Positions 2,209 through 10,836 are shown, counted from the stretch's first letter. The stretch is 64,000 nt of DNA from Alphaproteobacteria bacterium (GCA_033763655.1 JANRKD010000026.1:25922-89921), one strand, 5' to 3'. Program-made: numbers and translations. The notes: generated by a model not told the origin, from the sequence alone.

Positions 2209-2301
2209 GGAGGGGTGGCCGAGTGGCTGAAGGCGGCAGTTTGCTAAACTGTTGTAGGGGGTAAACCCCTACCGTGAGTTCGAATCTCATCTCCTCCGCC
2301 A
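2209..2301 (+). tRNA. tRNA-Ser (anticodon GCU), class II with long variable arm, CCA encoded
   Basis: GGAGGGGTGGCCGAGTGG...CAGTTTGCTAAACTG...GAGTTCGAATCTCATCTCCTCCGCCA. The 7-bp acceptor stem includes one G-U pair. The anticodon loop is TT-GCT-AA, the variable arm is GTAGGGGGTAAACCCCTAC, and the T-loop is GTTCGAATC. Confidence 0.95.
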
Positions 2302-2453
2302 TTAACCAAAGGCCACCACTGCGTGGCCTTTGGTTAATGAGGAGAATGATAGGTTTGCTCACGGTACGTGCGTTCGATTATTTACTTAGCGAGCATCGCG
2401 AGCTTAGGAAATAACGCGAAGCCCTTGCTGAGCATATCTCATCTCCTCCGCCA
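2296..2453 (+). repeat. 158-bp direct repeat, copy 1 (last 6 nt of tRNA-Ser + 15-bp-stem hairpin + spacer + 18-bp duplicate of the tRNA 3' end)
   Basis: CCGCCATTAACCAAAGGCCACCACTGCGTGGCCTTTGGTTAATGAGGAG...GCTGAGCATATCTCATCTCCTCCGCCA. ATCTCATCTCCTCCGCCA at 2436..2453 is identical to tRNA positions 2284..2301. A perfect hairpin lies at 2302..2337. Confidence 0.9.
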
Positions 2454-2820
2454 TTTTACAGCGAACCGCTGAAGTTCGCATAAGACCTCATTTGCAAGGT
2501 TCGAAAACAAAACCTGATCGGGCAAAAGCTATCAAAGAGGCTATGGATTTCCTTATGTTTTTAGGTTCGAATCTCAGTTTCAGAAATCAGAGAAATTTTG
2601 GTTTCATCGCGCAATTGACTTTTTCTTGTATTGAGGTATTGTGGTTTTGCTTTTGGAAAATAGTTTTCCGAAAGTGATATTACTGAAGAAACAAATTTGG
2701 TGTAGAGCACATCGAATTAGGAGAGATACCTTTTTCATATTAGCGCGTTTGCGCAGCTTTTCCCCTTACCAGTTTTGACAGTTTTATCTTTGTATAATTC
2801 ATTATATGGAGAGAAAAACC

Positions 2821-4398
2821 ATGTCTAACATTGCACTAGCTAACAATACCTCATCTTCTTACAGCTATAACAGCTCCCCCAATCCAGCAAAACTTATCGA
2901 GTCTCTACGTCACCTTGGCTACGATAATTACTCTGCGCTGGCAGACATAATCGACAACTCTTTTGATGCCGAAGCCAGTCACATCAAAGTGCTTATCCGC
3001 CAGAAGAATAAGCAGCAAGAAATCATTATCGCCGATAATGGCCACGGCATGGATGCCCATATTCTTGGTCAGGCTATTAGGTTGGGCTCTAACACTGAAA
3101 AAAATGCTGAAAGTGATTTAGGCAAATTTGGCATGGGGCTTTGCACTGCAAGCCTTTCTATCTGTCGCCAGACAACTGTAATTACAAAAACGGCTGATGG
3201 CAAAATGCTGAAAGCGGTGAATGATGTCGACGAAGTAATCCGACAAAATGCGTTCGTCAGCTATCTCGGTGAACCGACTTTCGAGGACAAAGCTTTATTT
3301 GAAGAACTTTTAGGAGACTCTGAGAGTGGAACTGTAATTGCCCTTCGTAAATGTGATAACCTCAGCCACAGCAGCAATACTACTAATTTTGCGAATCTGG
3401 CTATCAAGGAATTTGCCAGAATTTTCAGAAATTTCATCAAGGCTGGTATCAAGATTTCTGTAAACGACAAAGAATTATCTGCGATTGATCCATTGGAATG
3501 GGATGACCCGAAAACTGAGCACTATGACGATGGCTTTATCGAAATTGAAGTTGCGAACGAAGATGGAAAAACCGTTACAGAAAAAGTAGCGATTAAACTC
3601 GCTTTCCTAAAACCAAATGAAGAAAAAGGAGAAAAGGAGCGCGACTTTAACCAAAGAACTCAAGGCTTCTATGTGATGAGAAACAATCGCGAAATACTCA
3701 GCGCGAATGCACTTGGCTTGTTCATTAAACACAACTACCTCAACCGCTTTAGGGGCGAAATATCTTTTAGCGGCAATCTTGATAAGTTATTTGGCATCAA
3801 CTTCACAAAGAAGAACGTTGCCATGCATCAGTCGTTATCTGATAAATTAGCAGCTTATATTTCTCCTCAAGTGGCTTCTATTAAAAACAGGGAACAAAAG
3901 AAAACACGAAAAGAAACTCCAGAGAATATTACTGAAATTCATCAAGATGCTGCCAAAGAGATCGGCAAAAAAGCCAAGCTTTTAATGCGGCCTAAAGCCC
4001 CCAAAGAAAAGCGGGAATCTACTGGGGAAACTCCAGAACGCAAATCATCTGCTACTGAACCTAACCGCACCAGAGAGCCTGGTGAAAACAAGCAAGAGGG
4101 TTTTGCCGCTAATTGCGAGTTCAAGGCTGCCAGCATGGGAACTGGTGGCGTTATGTTTGACTCAGAACAGCGTGGTAGAACTACTGTGATTACGTATAAC
4201 TCCGATCATCCTTTCTATCAAAAATTTATTTTGGGTTACGGTGAAACAGATAGGGGTTTAGTTGCTGGCATAGACTATCTTATTTATAGCCTTGCATGCG
4301 CGGAACTAGCTCAGAATCTTGAAGAAGATGATGTGGCACAGCTTGTAAACAACTTCAAAACTATCGTATCTACTAACCTTAGAACACTATTGAGCTAA
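2821..4398 (+). CDS. GHKL-superfamily (MORC/HATPase_c_3-like) ATPase, orphan
   Basis: ORF 2806..4398. ATG 2821 (MSNIALANN) is preferred because GGAGAG lies 8 nt upstream. Bergerat-fold motifs are present: N box ALADIIDNSFDA (2941..2970), G1 DNGHGM (3034..3051) and G2 GKFGMG. A K/E/P-rich linker at about aa 365-440 is followed by a C-terminal domain. The gene is low-GC. Confidence 0.8.
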   Translation: MSNIALANNTSSSYSYNSSPNPAKLIESLRHLGYDNYSALADIIDNSFDAEASHIKVLIRQKNKQQEIIIADNGHGMDAHILGQAIRLGSNTEKNAESDLGKFGMGLCTASLSICRQTTVITKTADGKMLKAVNDVDEVIRQNAFVSYLGEPTFEDKALFEELLGDSESGTVIALRKCDNLSHSSNTTNFANLAIKEFARIFRNFIKAGIKISVNDKELSAIDPLEWDDPKTEHYDDGFIEIEVANEDGKTVTEKVAIKLAFLKPNEEKGEKERDFNQRTQGFYVMRNNREILSANALGLFIKHNYLNRFRGEISFSGNLDKLFGINFTKKNVAMHQSLSDKLAAYISPQVASIKNREQKKTRKETPENITEIHQDAAKEIGKKAKLLMRPKAPKEKRESTGETPERKSSATEPNRTREPGENKQEGFAANCEFKAASMGTGGVMFDSEQRGRTTVITYNSDHPFYQKFILGYGETDRGLVAGIDYLIYSLACAELAQNLEEDDVAQLVNNFKTIVSTNLRTLLS

Positions 4399-4408
4399 TA
4401 AATCTATC

Positions 4409-4435
4409 GAGGGTGGCTTGAAAAAAGTCACCCTC
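4409..4435 (+). terminator. Stem-loop just after the GHKL ATPase stop
   Basis: GAGGGTG-gcttgaaaaaagt-CACCCTC, 11 nt after the TAA. The tail aaatttctt is only weakly U-rich. Confidence 0.35.
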
Positions 4436-4578
4436 AAATTTCTTATGATTTCCGCCAGATAATGTAGTCCAAGGTTTTCTAGAAAGTTAGGGCGCATAAG
4501 CCGATAAACATAGGCCATATTCAACTTTACAATCGCTTGTCTGGTCTGCTCGCAGGTTCGCATAGCGTCTACAGTGTC

Positions 4579-4736
4579 CCGCCATTAACCAAGGGCCACC
4601 ACTGCGTGGCCTTTGGTTAATGAGGAGAATGATAGGTTTGCTCACGGTACGTGCGTTCGATTATTTACTTAGCGAGCATCGCGAGCTTAGGAAATAACGC
4701 GAAGCCCTTGCTGAGCATATCTCGTCTCCTCCGCCA
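4579..4736 (+). repeat. 158-bp direct repeat, copy 2 (att-like)
   Basis: Near-identical to 2296..2453, with a few substitutions (AAAGG->AAGGG in the hairpin, CTCATC->CTCGTC). It ends in ATCTCGTCTCCTCCGCCA (4719..4736). Confidence 0.9.
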
Positions 4737-4824
4737 CGGGGATGGGCGGCCATTTGTAATAATTCTGTAACAATCTCATGCTAGGATAAACATTATTGGA
4801 TAATGCTTAAAATACTGGATAAAT

Positions 4825-5799
4825 ATGGAAGCGACGATTTTAAATCATAATCAAGTCTTCAATACCTACGATGATCGTGAAGAGAAGCAGCTACAGATAT
4901 TTAAAGACTATGGCACGAAGACAGGATTGAGCGATCTGGCTATATTCCTTGGCGGCCGTTTGGGGTTGCCGCTTCGTAACCCAGATAAAACCAGCGATGG
5001 GCAACGCTCGGGTTTTGTCTACACTGCTTCGTCAGCTCGCGCAGAGATGTTCACTGTGCCAATAGGCAAGGTGAGCACAGTAGCCCCAACTGGTCGAGAA
5101 ACTCAAAGTGATTCGCAATCACGAACATGCGGCATACGCCTCGCCTTACCCCCCGAGGTAACATCTTCAATTTTGCCTGATAAAGAAAAAACGCATCCAA
5201 AAAATCAATCGCTAAGAATAGTTGAATACGGGGAATATCCGCAAAGCATAGCTTATGACAGCGAGGCGTTAGAGCATGAATTTCAGAAGCAACCTTTCGT
5301 CAAGACAGGTGCGCAATACACATTTGATGGCGAGGCGGCTGATGCGCACGATAAACCGTTTAACCCAATAAAATACGATGAATACGAGCATGACGACAAA
5401 CGTTATATCCGTGTAGAGGCGCGCCCAACGGTAAGCTATAAAGAGTGTTTGGATGGCCATTTGGAGAGCAACGCTATCCTATCAAACGGCCAGGAAGTGA
5501 AAGAGGGAGACATCGGCTGGATAGAAGTTCAGCCTGTCGAATGGCTCGCTGATCCATCAGGTTGGTGGGTGACAAAGCAAGGGTTGGTCGCTGGTGTTCA
5601 ATATGATGTCAAAAGAAAATATGACGGCAATTTTAATGAAACAAATGCAAATAAGTTCATCAACGAGGTGATGTTGAAAGAAATCCTGCCTGAAAGAGAT
5701 AGAGCCAAGATTGCTGGAACAATTCCACCCACTCGCGCTGATGGCAATAATTGGATTGACTCGCTTGGTGGTAGGTCTGGGCGTAAAATTGGCGAATAG
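4825..5799 (+). CDS. Hypothetical protein, paralog of 8445..9563
   Basis: 324-aa ORF in the second AT-rich segment. It shares multiple conserved blocks with ORF 8445..9563: YGTKTGLSDLA, DGQR.G.V..ASS, CG.R.ALP, VEYGEYPQ, DKPFN, YIRVEA.P, W.EVQP.EWL.DPSG, AGVQ.D, YDG.F..TN. Confidence 0.7.
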   Translation: MEATILNHNQVFNTYDDREEKQLQIFKDYGTKTGLSDLAIFLGGRLGLPLRNPDKTSDGQRSGFVYTASSARAEMFTVPIGKVSTVAPTGRETQSDSQSRTCGIRLALPPEVTSSILPDKEKTHPKNQSLRIVEYGEYPQSIAYDSEALEHEFQKQPFVKTGAQYTFDGEAADAHDKPFNPIKYDEYEHDDKRYIRVEARPTVSYKECLDGHLESNAILSNGQEVKEGDIGWIEVQPVEWLADPSGWWVTKQGLVAGVQYDVKRKYDGNFNETNANKFINEVMLKEILPERDRAKIAGTIPPTRADGNNWIDSLGGRSGRKIGE

Positions 5800-6376
5800 T
5801 TAACAAGCTATACATTAATGCTTAATCCTCATTTTTTACGCTTATTTAGCTGTCAAGAATACCATGCCTAGCGTAGTATTCATGACAGCAAAGTGGGTTT
5901 TGAGAGCCGCAGTTTGCCTCATGCCTTTTTATAACGAGAAGCGAGCGGTGTAACCAACAGACCGCCACCGTACGCCCTGCGGGCTTCGGGGGGCAGAGCG
6001 AGCGGTGTTTTTGGAGATAATAACTTCAAAGAAATTATTACCAAGAGGGTTCAGTCAATTAAGAATCACGCCATGCAGCTATCTCAAGGTGTGAACAACG
6101 TCTCGAGGTGTAACACAAAGATTTCATCGACACATTGCTCACCTAAGAATCAGAATCACACCGCCATAACCCGGCTCGCCGCCCTGCTTGACCTTCCGCC
6201 CGTTATCGGATAGGTTGGTTGCCCTGATGTCGTTGGTATGCTGGCGCGCGGCGCCACACCCTGCCACCGCTCAGCGGGTTCCCTTTCACAGGGTTCCGTT
6301 CCCGAAAGACGACCCTTAAAAAATCAAAAACACTACAGGCTGCCAGAGACAAGACCCCTACTACAGGAGGCACGTC

Positions 6377-7399
6377 ATGCGCGCAAGCAGGATGGTTCAC
6401 GAGATTACGCCGCTGGAAAAATCGGATATGCGCTACCGGCGCCTGTTTGAGACCGCGCGCGACGGCATCCTCATCCTCAGTTGCCCCGAGGGGAGAATCA
6501 GCGATGCCAACCCCTTCCTGACCGAAATGCTCGGCTACACGCTCGACGAACTGATCGGCAAGCGGCTTTGGGAAATCGGCGCGGTGACTGAGCAGAAAGC
6601 CGCGCCCGAAGCGTTTCCCGAGCTTATCACCAAAGGCTATATCCGCTGCGACGATTTGCCCCTGCGTCGCAAAGACGGCACCATCATCCATGTCGAAATG
6701 GTCAGCACCATCTACAATGTCGGCAGCGAGCGCGTCGTGCAATGCAACCTCAGGGATATCGCCGAGCGGAAGCTGGCAGAGAAGCAACTGCAGGAATACC
6801 AGAACTCCTTCGCCATCAGCATGCACGAAATGGTGAACACCCTCTCAACCCTGGTCGATCAGCGCGATCCTTATACGGCGGGGCATCAGGCACGGGTTTC
6901 GGATTTATCGGTGCAGATTGCCACGCAACTCGGCCTGCCCGCCCACACCATCGAGGGGATTCGCATGGGCGCCATGGTGCATGACATCGGCAAGGTCGCC
7001 ATTCCCGCAGAAATCCTGACCAAACCCACAAAATTGAATAGCTTCGAAACCGAAATGCTCAAAAACCATGTGCAGGCGGGCTACGATATCCTGAAGCATA
7101 TCCACTTCCCCTGGCCCGTGGCGCAAATTGTCCTGCAGCATCATGAGCGACTCGATGGCAGCGGCTACCCCAACGGCCTGAAGGGCGACAGCATCTGCGA
7201 GGAAGCCCGCATCATCGCCATCGCCGATTGCGTCGAGGCCATGGCCGGTGACCGGCCCTACCGCACCGCGCCTGGCATGGATGCCGCGCTTGAAATGCTT
7301 GAGGCCGACCGGGGCATCCTGTTTGATTTCGCCGCCGCGCAGGCCTGCCTGAAGCTATTTCGTGAGGAGCATTACGCCTTCAACTACCAGCATAGCTGA
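6377..7399 (+). CDS. PAS-sensor HD-GYP domain protein (putative c-di-GMP phosphodiesterase)
   Basis: AGGAGG lies 6 nt upstream of the ATG. The N-terminal PAS domain reads RYRRLFETARDGILIL...GRISDANPF. HD-GYP motifs are present: MVHDIGKVAIP and HHERLDGSGYPNGL. Confidence 0.9.
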   Translation: MRASRMVHEITPLEKSDMRYRRLFETARDGILILSCPEGRISDANPFLTEMLGYTLDELIGKRLWEIGAVTEQKAAPEAFPELITKGYIRCDDLPLRRKDGTIIHVEMVSTIYNVGSERVVQCNLRDIAERKLAEKQLQEYQNSFAISMHEMVNTLSTLVDQRDPYTAGHQARVSDLSVQIATQLGLPAHTIEGIRMGAMVHDIGKVAIPAEILTKPTKLNSFETEMLKNHVQAGYDILKHIHFPWPVAQIVLQHHERLDGSGYPNGLKGDSICEEARIIAIADCVEAMAGDRPYRTAPGMDAALEMLEADRGILFDFAAAQACLKLFREEHYAFNYQHS

Positions 7400-7427
7400 G
7401 CCGTCACCAGTCGCCAGCCCCTTCCGT

Positions 7428-7615
7428 GTCATGCCGTCTTTCATGACAGCCTACAGCTTTTTTTAAGGTAGGCAGACCCCGCAATCAATGCAGGGAGTGA
7501 AGGCAGGTGGTATCGTTTCGCGATTCTTTAATTCATCAGCTCTTCAGTTTTTCACTTCATCAACGCATCAATTCGCTACTGACTCAATTCGCCATTTCGT
7601 CAATTTCTCAAGTCG
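7428..7615. repeat. Degenerate copy of the modular intergenic repeat family (hairpin GTCATGCCGTCTTTCATGAC, GGTAGGCAGACCCCG, GTGAAGGCAGGTGGTATCG, TTCACTTCA tract, GCTACTGAC)
   Basis: Colinear short matches to 22675..23010: GTCATGCCGTCTTTATGAC, CGGTAGACCCCG, GTGAAGGATAGGTATGG, TTCACTTCC tract and the heptamer array. Confidence 0.55.
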
Positions 7616-7667
7616 CCGCCCGTAAAGAGCCATTTCCATCGGCAGGGGAAACTGTTATGCTCCGGGC

Positions 7668-8411
7668 ATGATTGCTGCCCCCCCTCGCACTTATGCCACG
7701 CTGCGCCACCCGACGATTGAAGCACTGGTCGGCGGGCATTACCGCTACCGCGAGCTGTCTGCGGCCAGGGCACGGTTTGACAGCATTACCGCCCATTTCA
7801 TATGCTCGAAGGATCTGCCGGAACCACCCGCAGAGATTGCCGCCGCCCTCCTTTGGATCAAAGGCTTCGCGGTCGGGGAAAGCGAGGCGCAGGCAGGCTA
7901 TACCGGGCATTTCGCCCGGATGGATATTATCCGCCGCCCGGACGGGCTTTTCACCCTGACCGCCCGCAAGCTTGAGCGCCCGCTCGCCACGCACCCGCAG
8001 AGAAAGCGCGCCGCTGGTAAGCATCCGAACATGGGGCACCCGGTCATGCGCGCGATTAAAAAGCGGAAAATCTACGCTAGCATCGAAGCGGCGCAGGCGG
8101 AGCTCGACCTGTTGCATCTGGATTTCCCGGAAGTGTCCATCCCCGGCGCAGGCAGGCTCTATATCATCCTCTACGAAAAGCGCGCAGGCAGCACGCGGCC
8201 AACGCACAAAATCGCCATCGAGATTGAACCCCATCCGCAAGGCGGCTACTTGCTTGCCATGCGCGACAACGAAAAACCCGCGCCTGCGTCGGCATCACCA
8301 TCCGCCCCGCCGCCGGGCGCCTTTACGGCGAAGGTACTGTTGCGCCAGAAGAAAAAACGTAAGAACCTCGGCCGTCCCGTCACCGGCCACACGCCGGAGG
8401 AGCAGGCGTAG
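7668..8411 (+). CDS. Hypothetical protein
   Basis: 247-aa ORF with backbone-like GC3-rich codon usage and a K/R-rich C-terminus. I recognise no motif. Overlapping ORFs in other frames look like high-GC artefacts. Confidence 0.5.
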   Translation: MIAAPPRTYATLRHPTIEALVGGHYRYRELSAARARFDSITAHFICSKDLPEPPAEIAAALLWIKGFAVGESEAQAGYTGHFARMDIIRRPDGLFTLTARKLERPLATHPQRKRAAGKHPNMGHPVMRAIKKRKIYASIEAAQAELDLLHLDFPEVSIPGAGRLYIILYEKRAGSTRPTHKIAIEIEPHPQGGYLLAMRDNEKPAPASASPSAPPPGAFTAKVLLRQKKKRKNLGRPVTGHTPEEQA

Positions 8412-8444
8412 GGATTGGCCTCCCGCCCCATGCGCCCGTGGTTA

Positions 8445-9563
8445 TCACCGGTTTCTGCCGGTCAAACCAATTCGCGAAAGTTGATCATGGTTGGCGGAGT
8501 CTCTGTTTCTCTGCATTTCAGCCTGACGCATATACCCGCCCCGGTTGAGTATGTTGTCCATACCCTCACCGCCTGTTCTTGCCACACCCAACGTGCGCGC
8601 CAAAATCTCAGGGGTAACACCCGTCACGATGCGCGAAGGCGCTGCGGCCTGTTCACCCACCTCGGCAGCCTGCACTCGCGAAGGCTGCATCTCGTGCCAG
8701 AAAGGGCCATTCAGATAGTTATGCATATTTGTGTTCTCAAAAATTCCATCGTAAAATCTGTCACGGTCGAATTGCACACCAGCAAAGAGTGCCTGCCGCG
8801 CTACGCATATGCCGCTGGGGTCTCTTAACCACTCGATGGGTTGTACTTCTACCCAGTACACTTTACCCGTTTCTGGTTTCTTACCGTTAGAGAGCACGGA
8901 ATGATCTTTGTCGTAGTCGTATGGCTTCGCCTCCACGCGAATATACTTCTTACCCTTATGTTGGTATTCAGCATGCTCCTTCGCGTTGAACGGCTTGTCG
9001 TAAGCGTCGTATTTCTCGGCATCAAACGTATATTTCTTGCCTGTTAAATTTTGCTTCCCCGTCGGTTTATTCTGATCGGCCTGATAGGCTTTCTCCAGTT
9101 CCTGCGTGAGCCGATCTGCCTTCTCAGGTGATTCATTCGCAAAAGCAACGGTCTGCGGATATTCACCATATTCGACGACATCTATTTCAGCATTGTCCAC
9201 CCCAGAAATTTTTCGCGAAGGATTCGCTTCGCTCAGCCCGAGTGAAGATGCAACCGATGATGGCAAAGCGGGGCGCGCCCCACAAAGCCGTATGCTCGGA
9301 TCGTTATAGTTCCGGTCACCGTCGTCATCGACGGCGCGGACAAATTGAGAGACGTTGGAAGAGGCCGACCAAACATAGCCTGCTCGTTGACCATCCCTGG
9401 TTGTATGACTCCCCACATAGCCACCCAGCAAGACAGCCAAGTCGCTCAGGCCGGTCTTGGTGCCGTAGCGCTTTATTACCTCAAGCTGCCCATTGCCTCG
9501 GGCATCGCCCCAGTGCTGCTCTTCCGTTAGTAATGTGACCTTTGACTCTACGGATTTAGACAT
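8445..9563 (-). CDS. Hypothetical protein, paralog of 4825..5799
   Basis: 372-aa ORF with lower GC than its flanks (by eye). Conserved blocks are shared with 4825..5799 (see that feature). AAAGG lies upstream of the ATG. Confidence 0.75.
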   Translation of the reverse strand: MSKSVESKVTLLTEEQHWGDARGNGQLEVIKRYGTKTGLSDLAVLLGGYVGSHTTRDGQRAGYVWSASSNVSQFVRAVDDDGDRNYNDPSIRLCGARPALPSSVASSLGLSEANPSRKISGVDNAEIDVVEYGEYPQTVAFANESPEKADRLTQELEKAYQADQNKPTGKQNLTGKKYTFDAEKYDAYDKPFNAKEHAEYQHKGKKYIRVEAKPYDYDKDHSVLSNGKKPETGKVYWVEVQPIEWLRDPSGICVARQALFAGVQFDRDRFYDGIFENTNMHNYLNGPFWHEMQPSRVQAAEVGEQAAAPSRIVTGVTPEILARTLGVARTGGEGMDNILNRGGYMRQAEMQRNRDSANHDQLSRIGLTGRNR

Positions 9564-9774
9564 GATTCAATACCTTTGCTATGGATTTCTGCGGGGGTGG
9601 CTTCGCCTGCAGAAAGCAGGAGAAACCGAGGCTCAACCCTATCTCTACCCCACCCCCGTGGCATTTGTATGACGGTATGATGAAGATTATGTGACAATTG
9701 GCCCTGCCTTCCACTCGCGATTTCATCATTTTGTCACAAATGGTGTGGGCATTTGCTGCTACAATCCAAAGCTG

Positions 9775-10836
9775 ATGGAAAACACGACCCCACAGTCGGT
9801 TGCGGCGCCCAAACACTTTGTCACCAAGGGTGAGGAGGCGTTCGACAAACGCACTTACGACGACATCGGCTACAAGGCGAATGTCGCCAGCAGCATTGGC
9901 ATGGTCTATGCCGCCGAACGCACGGCCACAGGACGCAACGCGCTGAGCAAAACGGCAGCGTGGATCGCGAAAACAGGTAAATTCAACCCCAAATCCACCC
10001 AGTATTTCCTGACCAAAACCATGTTCCTGACCGGCGGTTTCCTCGTAATGCTGCCGATGAAGTGGATGGAAGATAAAAAGGCTGAATGGGTCCACAAAAA
10101 GAATCAGGAAATTTACGGCGATGCGGCCAATGATGCCGCCATCGTCCAATCGGAAAAAGAAGTCGCCGAAGCGCCAAAACAGGGCTGGGCCTCACTGTTT
10201 GGCGCGCGCGCCATTGCACTGGCGGGGTTCTATACGCTGATGGGTATGCTGTGGGATAACAAAAGCAGCATCGCACGGATGACCAACAAAAACTTCAAAG
10301 GGTTGGACAAAACAGCGCTTGATGCGATGGAAGCGCGCGACCCCTCGGCCTTCGCCAAAACCGCCAGTGAAGGGTTTTATGTCGATAAGCCGCTTGTCAA
10401 GCTATCGCGTGCGCTGGGCAAAGGCTGGAGTAAACTGACCGGCAATGCCGCCGCGCTCGAAAAAGTCGAGGAGATGGGCGCGAAATATCCGGGCATGATG
10501 AAGCAGGCAGGCACGAACGAGCCGCTAAGCAACCGCGACGGCACCGCCACCTCGCTGTTCTACTATGCGTTCAGCGAATTAATTACCTCGAAGTTCGTCG
10601 CGGTGTGGGTCTATATCCTCAGCCGCTTCACCGGGCCGTTCTTCGACCCCAAACCCAAGACTGCCGCGCCGGACATCTACGCCTCCGAGGCGCCACAGTC
10701 CGCGCCTATCGGCCATCACGTCCCCACGCCCGCACGCGCGCTAACGGCGGATGAACCCTCGCCACGCGTGCATGCCGTCACGCACGCCCAGCCGTTGCTG
10801 GATGCGGCACCCGCGCTGGCCGGGCAGCGCGCTTAA
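9775..10836 (+). CDS. Hypothetical membrane protein (about 3 predicted TM segments)
   Basis: ORF 9691..10836; the ATG at 9775 (MENTTPQ) is preferred. Hydrophobic segments: FLTKTMFLTGGFLVMLPM, ASLFGARAIALAGFYTLMGMLW, LFYYAFSELITSKFVAVWVYIL. It is divergent from 8445..9563. Confidence 0.6.
   Translation: MENTTPQSVAAPKHFVTKGEEAFDKRTYDDIGYKANVASSIGMVYAAERTATGRNALSKTAAWIAKTGKFNPKSTQYFLTKTMFLTGGFLVMLPMKWMEDKKAEWVHKKNQEIYGDAANDAAIVQSEKEVAEAPKQGWASLFGARAIALAGFYTLMGMLWDNKSSIARMTNKNFKGLDKTALDAMEARDPSAFAKTASEGFYVDKPLVKLSRALGKGWSKLTGNAAALEKVEEMGAKYPGMMKQAGTNEPLSNRDGTATSLFYYAFSELITSKFVAVWVYILSRFTGPFFDPKPKTAAPDIYASEAPQSAPIGHHVPTPARALTADEPSPRVHAVTHAQPLLDAAPALAGQRA

Follow-up and report, generated by a model that had tools for sequence, protein, structure and literature searches.

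The question raised by this locus is what kind of protein is encoded by two related genes that lie close together in a 64,000-nucleotide stretch of DNA from an Alphaproteobacteria metagenome-assembled genome (MAG) (GCA_033763655.1, JANRKD010000026.1:25922-89921; this whole stretch is called the window from here on), and how the genome came to hold both. An earlier note, made from the sequence of the window, had pointed out the two open reading frames (ORFs), which we call A and B (Table 1), and had described them as diverged paralogs. ORF calling gave the same coordinates for both, and BLASTP aligned the two proteins with 40% identity over 326 columns (E=4e-69), reproducing every block of similarity that had been quoted. 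We show here that the family to which A and B belong is a variable-protein family of diversity-generating retroelements (DGRs). In all likelihood it is a large, unannotated, and mostly alphaproteobacterial set of variable (target) proteins of one DGR clade, in which B is an addressable target that is either remote or recently orphaned and A is a fixed one.

Relatives of A and B lie in DGR cassettes

In a DGR, a complex of Avd and the reverse transcriptase (RT) reverse-transcribes the RNA of a template repeat (TR) with misincorporation at adenines, and the initiation of mutagenic homing (IMH) sequence directs the replacement of the variable region (VR) of the target gene by the cDNA. Cassettes with these parts, namely, Avd, TR, RT, and target, were found beside relatives of A and B, and in them the hypervariable stretch of the family protein is the VR. 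A complete RT lies next to a family gene in eight distinct loci, which are L001, L008, L010, L012, L018, L022, L049, and L053. In L001, where the homolog P0016 lies in a prophage-like region, target 1 is followed by a VWA protein of 900 aa and a bAvd-like protein; then come a non-coding repeat of 117 nt, an RVT_1 RT, and target 2, and after these a lysozyme and tail-fibre-like genes. The 117-nt repeat is the TR, and its mismatches to the two copies within the target genes fall on TR adenines in 12 of 12 and 14 of 14 cases. It encodes FVWSASSNENGNVRAVNNNGDRNYNNPNKRNCGARPDL, which is Asn-rich and of the classic template kind; at the nucleotide level an example of a TR is TGTTTGGTCGGCCTCTTCC ... 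GGGGCGCGCCCCGATTTGC. L008 has the same architecture and its accessory protein matches the PHROG 'Avd protein of DGR' at 2.5e-15, and the architecture of L001 was seen again in L010/L078, L012, L018, L022, L049, and L053. In loci beyond L001, the mismatches that fall on TR adenines were 10/10, 10/11, 8/8, 15/17, 20/24, 14/17, 18/19, and 16/19. Since the mismatches between TR and VR are nearly confined to TR adenines across the eight loci, the family is a DGR variable-protein family.

Two traits of these elements are unusual, namely, the placement of the VR within the N-terminal third of the protein and the common gene order, which is TR-RT-target. VRs that are proximal to the 5' end have been described as rare (PMC10743442). 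Remote targets are also common in the family: the genes in L038, L009, L037, and L085 have no RT within 10 kb and yet match a sampled TR with a non-adenine identity of 0.97-1.00.

Some further features of the cassettes were observed. The human-gut-type TRs of L022 and L049, which lie upstream of the RT, contain an in-frame TAA (…GTCAACTAAAACGGC…). Thus, an unmutated copy would truncate the target, and full-length protein would be made only from cDNAs that are mutated at adenines. Upstream of Avd-TR-RT there is a conserved four-gene module (7147-13614 in L001 and 360-6746 in L008) that codes for an AAA-like protein of 823-844 aa, a 104-aa protein, a DGR target, and a protein of 894-904 aa with a weak VWA_2 match; no PHROG match was obtained for this module. 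In L010, a DUF2201 (VWA-like) protein comes after the target. In L017 (5057-6924) and L015 (1-962) an RT match of about 170 aa abuts or overlaps a long ORF that matches the family hidden Markov model (HMM), and the TR/VR test was not significant. These two loci may be rearranged or decaying cassettes.

The variable region of B

The VR of B was aligned to the TR of L001, an element from another sample. There are 18 mismatches, 15 of which are on TR adenines (hypergeometric P=5e-8), and the two sequences are identical at 83 of the 86 non-adenine positions and at all 36 of the non-adenine third-codon positions. Outside the VR, that is, in the upstream coding region and the gene body, B is 67-71% identical to the L001 targets, and the contrast with the VR gives a Fisher value of about 1e-8. 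When each family gene was surveyed against eight TRs, the non-adenine identity of B was 0.97, and that of true cognate pairs was 0.95-1.00. Because non-adenine positions are frozen in the VR while the rest of the gene stands at 67-71%, the VR of B appears to have been written from a TR after the gene bodies diverged. Such a pattern would be expected if the gene bodies had diverged long before a TR of the L001/L012 type was copied into the VR of B by retrohoming.

The sequences around the VR of B are of interest in the same respect. From nucleotide 241 to 400, the identity of B to the L001 targets is 87-92%, compared to 69% overall, and this part includes the IMH-like end of the VR and an inverted repeat downstream of it (Table 1). 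The end, GGGGCGCGCCCCGCTTTGC, has a C in B that is specific to VRs, whereas the listed TRs that reach this far all have an A and read ...CGATTTGC. By analogy with the published DGR mechanism, the GGGGCGCGCCCCGCTTTGC end of B would act as an IMH, and the inverted repeat is a candidate hairpin that may have a role in DGR targeting. The TRs of L001, L008, L010, L012, L018, and L053 all end in …CCCCGATTTGC, which encodes RPDL, and the VRs that were checked as nucleotide sequences, which are those of B and of both L001 targets, have …CCCCGCTTTGC; RPAL is near-invariant in the family. This fixed A-to-C difference between TR and VR is probably the IMH*/IMH discriminator that sets the direction of homing.

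Since B has an intact VR and solitary copies that match a TR are common in the family, B is most reasonably taken for a remote target, one that a DGR still serves in trans or that was orphaned only a short time ago, and we consider a live and an orphaned B to be about equally likely. If B is live, then its VR would be diversified at present.

Of the rival explanations, the one that survives best is that B is a fossil target left by a decayed or excised prophage or gene transfer agent (GTA)-like DGR element, that it is no longer diversified, and that both copies are ordinary fixed paralogs. We regard this as possible, although somewhat doubtful, and it draws on most of the observations that weigh against an addressable B. 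No RT was found in the window, either by HMM search with the filters off (best E>6) or by a search for YxDD, and neither a TR copy nor Avd was found there; the window also has none of the prophage-module genes of L001 and L008. No RT that could be assigned to the MAG of B was present among the top 120 RT homologs. The VR of B has three non-adenine differences from the foreign TR, including a GG-to-CA change, which mean either that the cognate TR is slightly different or that decay has begun, and A is an example of a decayed VR. In addition, the same MAG has a third copy of the family, P0002 (73% identity), on a different contig. The VR of P0002 is two residues longer than that of B and therefore a single TR cannot serve both. 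Against a fossil stand the non-adenine third-codon positions of B, none of which has departed from the foreign TR while the gene body is at about 69%, and the IMH-like end and the hairpin, which are intact. With the VR frozen and the gene body diverged, any orphaning must have been very recent. Moreover, it is common in the family for a target to lie over 10 kb from any RT, and prophage contigs are often lost from MAGs during binning. When genome contigs were scanned with an adenine-free 19-mer, only a sibling MAG and three stretches without a family HMM match were recovered.

Structure of B and the relation to DUF6273

The AlphaFold2 model of B, made with a 77-sequence alignment, has a pLDDT of 85 and a pTM of 0.81 and is confident over residues 10-300. 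In this model the VR is made up of strands and loops (residues 64-100), and after residue 105 the protein is mixed alpha/beta with helices at the C-terminus. A Foldseek search with the family model gave no match to Mtd, TvpA, TaqVP, or any PDB or BFVD structure, which is one point against the interpretation given at the outset.

A second rival explanation is that A and B are members of DUF6273 (PF19789), possibly circularly permuted with the VR-bearing half first. A resemblance to DUF6273-type domains had been suggested in the earlier note, and it turned out to be a useful lead because DUF6273 is a known DGR target domain, C-type-lectin-like, with the VR at its C-terminal end (PMC11792537, PMC10743442). 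The tentaclin of phage nd4, which has an adjoining RT, matches DUF6273 at 3e-40. Within the family, residues 241-280 of P0058 match positions 21-58 of the DUF6273 profile at E=0.003, and hhalign against a 27-sequence DUF6273 profile of tentaclin homologs aligned the VR scaffold in the correct register with a pairwise E of 4e-4 to 2e-3. The two resemblances occur in reversed order relative to DUF6273, which would suit a permuted domain. Membership in PF19789, however, did not hold up. A and B gave no match to the profile at E<=1, and sub-threshold matches were seen in 2 of the 77 members, the best being 17.9 bits, over profile positions 21-58, against a gathering score of 23.5. Constructs that were permuted in silico scored 14.7-17 bits, which is no gain, and the VR half contributed nothing. 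The hhalign alignments covered the VR scaffold alone (60-64 columns, probability 15-34%) and never spanned the domain, and Foldseek showed no lectin-fold neighbour. On balance we think it unlikely that A and B are DUF6273 members. The family works like a DUF6273/C-type lectin target, and it may be a distant or permuted relative.

Copy A and the tRNA-Ser island

The segment of A that corresponds to the VR is 7 residues longer than that of B, contains K/E/Q/M, and has GIRLALP in place of GARPALP. It showed no similarity to any of the eight sampled TRs, the best alignment being 31 nt with a non-adenine identity of 0.62. Since A retains all 16 of the 16 family-invariant residues, it is probably functional. 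The closest relative of A that was found, P0264, is 51% identical and differs most in the VR-equivalent, where the composition of P0264 is more DGR-like. Many other paralogs, for example, those in the gut-metagenome loci L056-L064 and L076-L084, likewise match none of the sampled TRs, and A belongs to this large class. Judged from these sequence features, the most likely explanation is that A is a fixed-specificity version of the same binding protein and comes from a separate subfamily.

Table 1. Positions of the genes and sequence elements discussed, counted from the first nucleotide of the window
Feature	Position	Strand	Description
Paralog A (ORF A)	4825..5799	+	324 aa; divergent subfamily member
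Paralog B (ORF B)	8445..9563	-	372 aa; intact VR; MDX2095838.1, locus tag SFW64_07885, Alphaproteobacteria MAG
VR of B	9263..9379	-	117 nt, residues 62-100; YVWSASS NVSQF VRAV DDD GDR NYND P SI R LC GARPAL
IMH-like, GC-rich palindromic 3' end of the VR	9263..9281	-	GGGGCGCGCCCCGCTTTGC; same sequence in both VRs of the active L001 element
Inverted repeat, candidate DGR target hairpin	9215..9232	-	GCGAAG-CGAATC-CTTCGC; 30 nt past the VR, with a counterpart at this location in both L001 targets
VR-equivalent of A	5011..5151	+	Residues 63-109; degenerate
tRNA-Ser(GCT)	2209..2301	+	Integration site that opens the low-GC island of A; ARAGORN
Direct repeats, 158 nt	2296-2453 and 4579-4736	+	99% identical; each ends in a copy of the tRNA 3' end
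Lone GHKL ATPase	2806..4398	+	Inside the 2.3-kb repeat-bounded cassette; HATPase_c_3 match

Beginning at the tRNA-Ser gene, the GC content falls from 0.55-0.62 to 0.39-0.48 across about 2300-6150. The 3' end of the tRNA occurs three times, at 2284-2301, 2436-2453, and 4719-4736, where none would be expected by chance, and A starts 89 nt past the second direct repeat. No integrase is present on the island and no right-hand attachment (att) site was found even when up to 3 mismatches were allowed. The ATPase cassette that is bracketed by the repeats has the appearance of a single gene that was inserted very recently, by a Campbell-type or site-specific event.

A third rival explanation is that A is cargo of an anti-phage defence island and acts together with the adjacent ATPase. 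A does lie on the tRNA-Ser island, 427 bp downstream of a GHKL ATPase that resembles MzaB and whose N-terminus is similar to the restriction enzymes BbrUII/HgiDII, but the 158-nt direct repeats bracket the ATPase and exclude A. The match to MzaB is 120 bits against a cutoff of 850 and is to the N-terminal GHKL part only, and none of the partner genes MzaA/C/D/E is in the 2.3-kb cassette; the ATPase as MzaB of an MZA defence system was thus rejected. No homolog of this ATPase lies beside family genes in the related loci L001-L091, and neither A nor B has a PADLOC match. With A outside the repeat boundaries and no co-occurrence in these loci, a functional link between A and the ATPase was also rejected, and we consider this explanation very improbable.

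The two copies in their genomic setting

The arrangement of A and B described in the earlier note, on opposite strands and about 2.6 kb apart, was borne out, the gap being 2,646 bp. By tblastn, A and B are the only copies in the window, and a search with the family HMM with the filters off revealed no further fragments of the family there. As had been stated, nucleotide identity between the two genes is low, with short blastn segments at 65-78% and 52% identity on a codon alignment. That they occupy separate low-GC patches was likewise upheld: the GC content at third codon positions (GC3) is 0.44 in A and 0.56 in B against 0.70-0.76 in adjacent backbone genes, and the GC content of the whole window is 58.9%. 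The earlier note had left the choice between an old duplication and independent acquisition. Both genes are foreign in composition and were probably acquired separately, A being carried on a tRNA-Ser island and B inserted as a lone gene, with different GC3 values in the two. It is plausible that the two were gained independently of each other.

B is inserted as a single gene between genes of backbone GC. On one side is the ORF at 7668..8411 (+), which codes for 247 aa and has backbone GC. On the other side is a membrane ORF at 9691/9775..10836 (+) of 381 aa with about 3 transmembrane segments and a backbone-like GC3 of 0.70. Neither flanking ORF (7668..8411, 9691..10836) has a match in Pfam, NCBIfam, PHROGs, or PADLOC. 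The earlier note had taken B and the membrane protein to be divergently paired. Their divergent orientation is correct, but the membrane ORF has the composition of the backbone and is never found beside family members in L001-L091, and therefore the pairing looks incidental. A functional link of B to the membrane protein or to the ORF at 7668..8411 was dropped because there was no co-occurrence in these loci.

Size, distribution, and hypervariable stretch of the family

The family is uncharacterised, as had been claimed: A and B gave no match at permissive thresholds to Pfam, NCBIfam, PHROGs, PADLOC, or PDB sequences, and no curated model covers either of them. The family is not that of a well-characterised housekeeping enzyme, the finding that would have told against the earlier note. 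The N-termini of A and B, when read off the sequence, have no hydrophobic signal-like segment, in agreement with the lack of a signal peptide noted before. A search that started from B gave 783 clusters at 90% identity, all of them "hypothetical", and the named ones are chiefly from Alphaproteobacteria MAGs. An exhaustive profile search gave at least 2,328 representatives (50% identity) at E<=1e-3 and 770 at E<=1e-30, some of which have two or three tandem modules. In some loci 3-4 family genes are arrayed in tandem, and there are also fused proteins of 705-1005 aa with two or three modules (L065, L073, and L077; P0250, P0252, P0253, and P0266). Several gut-metagenome contigs have 2-3 dispersed copies, and only some of these copies match a TR. 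Contigs on which more than one copy occurs include OJOY01000003.1 and OGHC01000002.1. Family genes keep a GC content of about 50-53% (GC3 0.51-0.60) in loci of 45%, 49%, 53%, and 59% GC (B; L001, L007, L008, and L009). This steady GC content across hosts suggests recent mobility or a compositional constraint, possibly through nucleotide matching between TR and VR.

Close homologs are near-identical throughout except in the stretch of about 30 residues from VWSASS to GARPALP. In an alignment of 121 sequences, column entropy peaks at residues 70-95 of B, where invariant G, R, P, and R residues are interleaved. At the 11 positions that have AAY codons in the L001 TR, 96% of the residues in 75 homologs are encodable by NNY, compared to 75% elsewhere in the protein, and the NNY-encodable residues seen at the variable positions are D, G, Y, N, S, H, C, F, V, L, R, I, A, T, and P. 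A localized hypervariable stretch with a spectrum limited to NNY is, as read from these protein sequences, the signature of a DGR at the protein level. A further rival explanation is that the stretch owes its variability to ordinary diversifying selection on a surface loop, or to recombination there, with no retroelement involved; positively selected hypervariable loops are common in phage and surface proteins, and the window lacks an RT. This explanation is hardly credible, and it is refuted at the family level by the eight loci in which a non-coding template adjoins RT and Avd and nearly all mismatches fall on adenines of the template, by synonymous non-adenine positions that are frozen, and by the NNY-restricted residues.

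Proposed mechanism and function

In the complete elements, Avd and RT would copy the non-coding TR into cDNA with its adenines misread, and this cDNA would take the place of the VR of about 117 nt in the target gene. In this way, the AAY (Asn) codons of the TR would be rewritten and about a dozen surface positions would be randomised in the N-terminal domain, which is rich in beta-hairpins and is presumably the ligand-binding face. The VR of B was by all appearances written from a TR that is near-identical to that of a related prophage-borne DGR, and B would either be served in trans from elsewhere in the genome or have been recently orphaned. The VR-equivalent of A, on the other hand, has drifted and become longer by an insertion, so that none of the sampled TRs can address it.

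The variable positions may make up a surface that binds ligands. The targets of the complete elements have tail-fibre-like, lysozyme, and GTA/phage-tail genes beside them. These neighbours suggest a role in receptor binding on a phage or GTA-like particle. This link to a particle is weakened by two observations. Many family genes are chromosomal solitary copies whose products have no signal peptides, and no relatives were found in IMG/VR or GenBank phages. Because of the latter, a purely phage-structural view is weaker and the plain label "phage tail fibre" is without database support.

We also propose, tentatively and with the doubt leaning against it, a broader interpretation. The family would be a DGR variable-protein family that has not been described before and is very large, with more than 2,300 clusters at 50% identity that extend from freshwater and soil Alphaproteobacteria to human-gut lineages. 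Its scaffold would have the VR near the N-terminus and would either lack a recognisable lectin fold of the Mtd/TvpA type or be a circular permutation of such a fold. The family would work as a distributed network in which one Avd-TR-RT cassette serves some of the scattered single-gene copies in trans, while sister copies like A have escaped to fixed specificity.

DGRs are already well known, and what stands out here is the size of the family, its lack of annotation, and the 5'-proximal VR. Two "hypothetical proteins" of the window become interpretable as a target of programmed hypervariation and its frozen sibling. Thousands of unannotated proteins that are outside the curated libraries, including abundant human-gut alphaproteobacterial copies, can thereby be approached in terms of function. 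A new DGR target with a 5'-proximal VR and no detectable structural neighbour is a candidate test of how general the C-type lectin fold is for massive variation. The occurrence of addressable and non-addressable paralogs in single genomes, along with solitary targets far from any RT, offers a system for the study of trans-targeting and of the birth and death of DGR targets. For annotation, stand-alone genes that bear a VR can be recognised through TRs sampled in other genomes. The findings would carry more weight if the scaffold is indeed new or if a trans-targeting network operates within one genome.

Comparison with known systems

By definition, tentaclins have a lectin domain followed by 1-4 immunoglobulin (Ig)-like domains and an Ig consensus at the C-terminus (PMC10743442). 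Membership of the family among the tentaclins was rejected since none of its 77 members has an Ig or Fn3 match, and unlike tentaclins the family proteins have a mixed alpha/beta body and C-terminal helices. Two-target cassettes, like that of L001, also occur in tentaclin DGRs (PMC10743442).

The DUF6273 targets of gut phages, namely, target 2 of nd4/nd12 and those of the Faecalibacterium phages Lelie, Roos, and Pioen, were also compared with the family. They have the same VR scaffold, W-x-[SR]-S ... VR-x-V ... G ... G-x-RPA, and in both groups the VR is a beta-hairpin region that ends in an RPA motif, the two VRs being set in register by hhalign. A weak likeness was also seen between the C-terminal ALFAGVQFD...YDG.F..T.M..YL of the family and profile positions 21-63. 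The differences are that the family scores are all under the Pfam threshold, that an insertion of about 125 residues separates the two resemblances in addition to their reversed order, and that the hosts of the family are Alphaproteobacteria whereas the DUF6273 targets are in Firmicutes phages.

Compared with the established DGR variable proteins, which are Mtd of Bordetella phage BPP-1, TvpA, and TaqVP, the family differs in having the VR in the N-terminal third and not at the C-terminus and in the order TR-RT-target, and the copies in the window have no cassette nearby. In other respects the relatives described here are like them. They have a VR of about 117 nt and a non-coding TR beside an RVT_1 RT and Avd, mismatches on TR adenines, a TR rich in Asn (AAY) codons, and a GC-rich 3' end of the VR with a fixed difference between TR and VR, and they share with them both two-target loci and remote targets.

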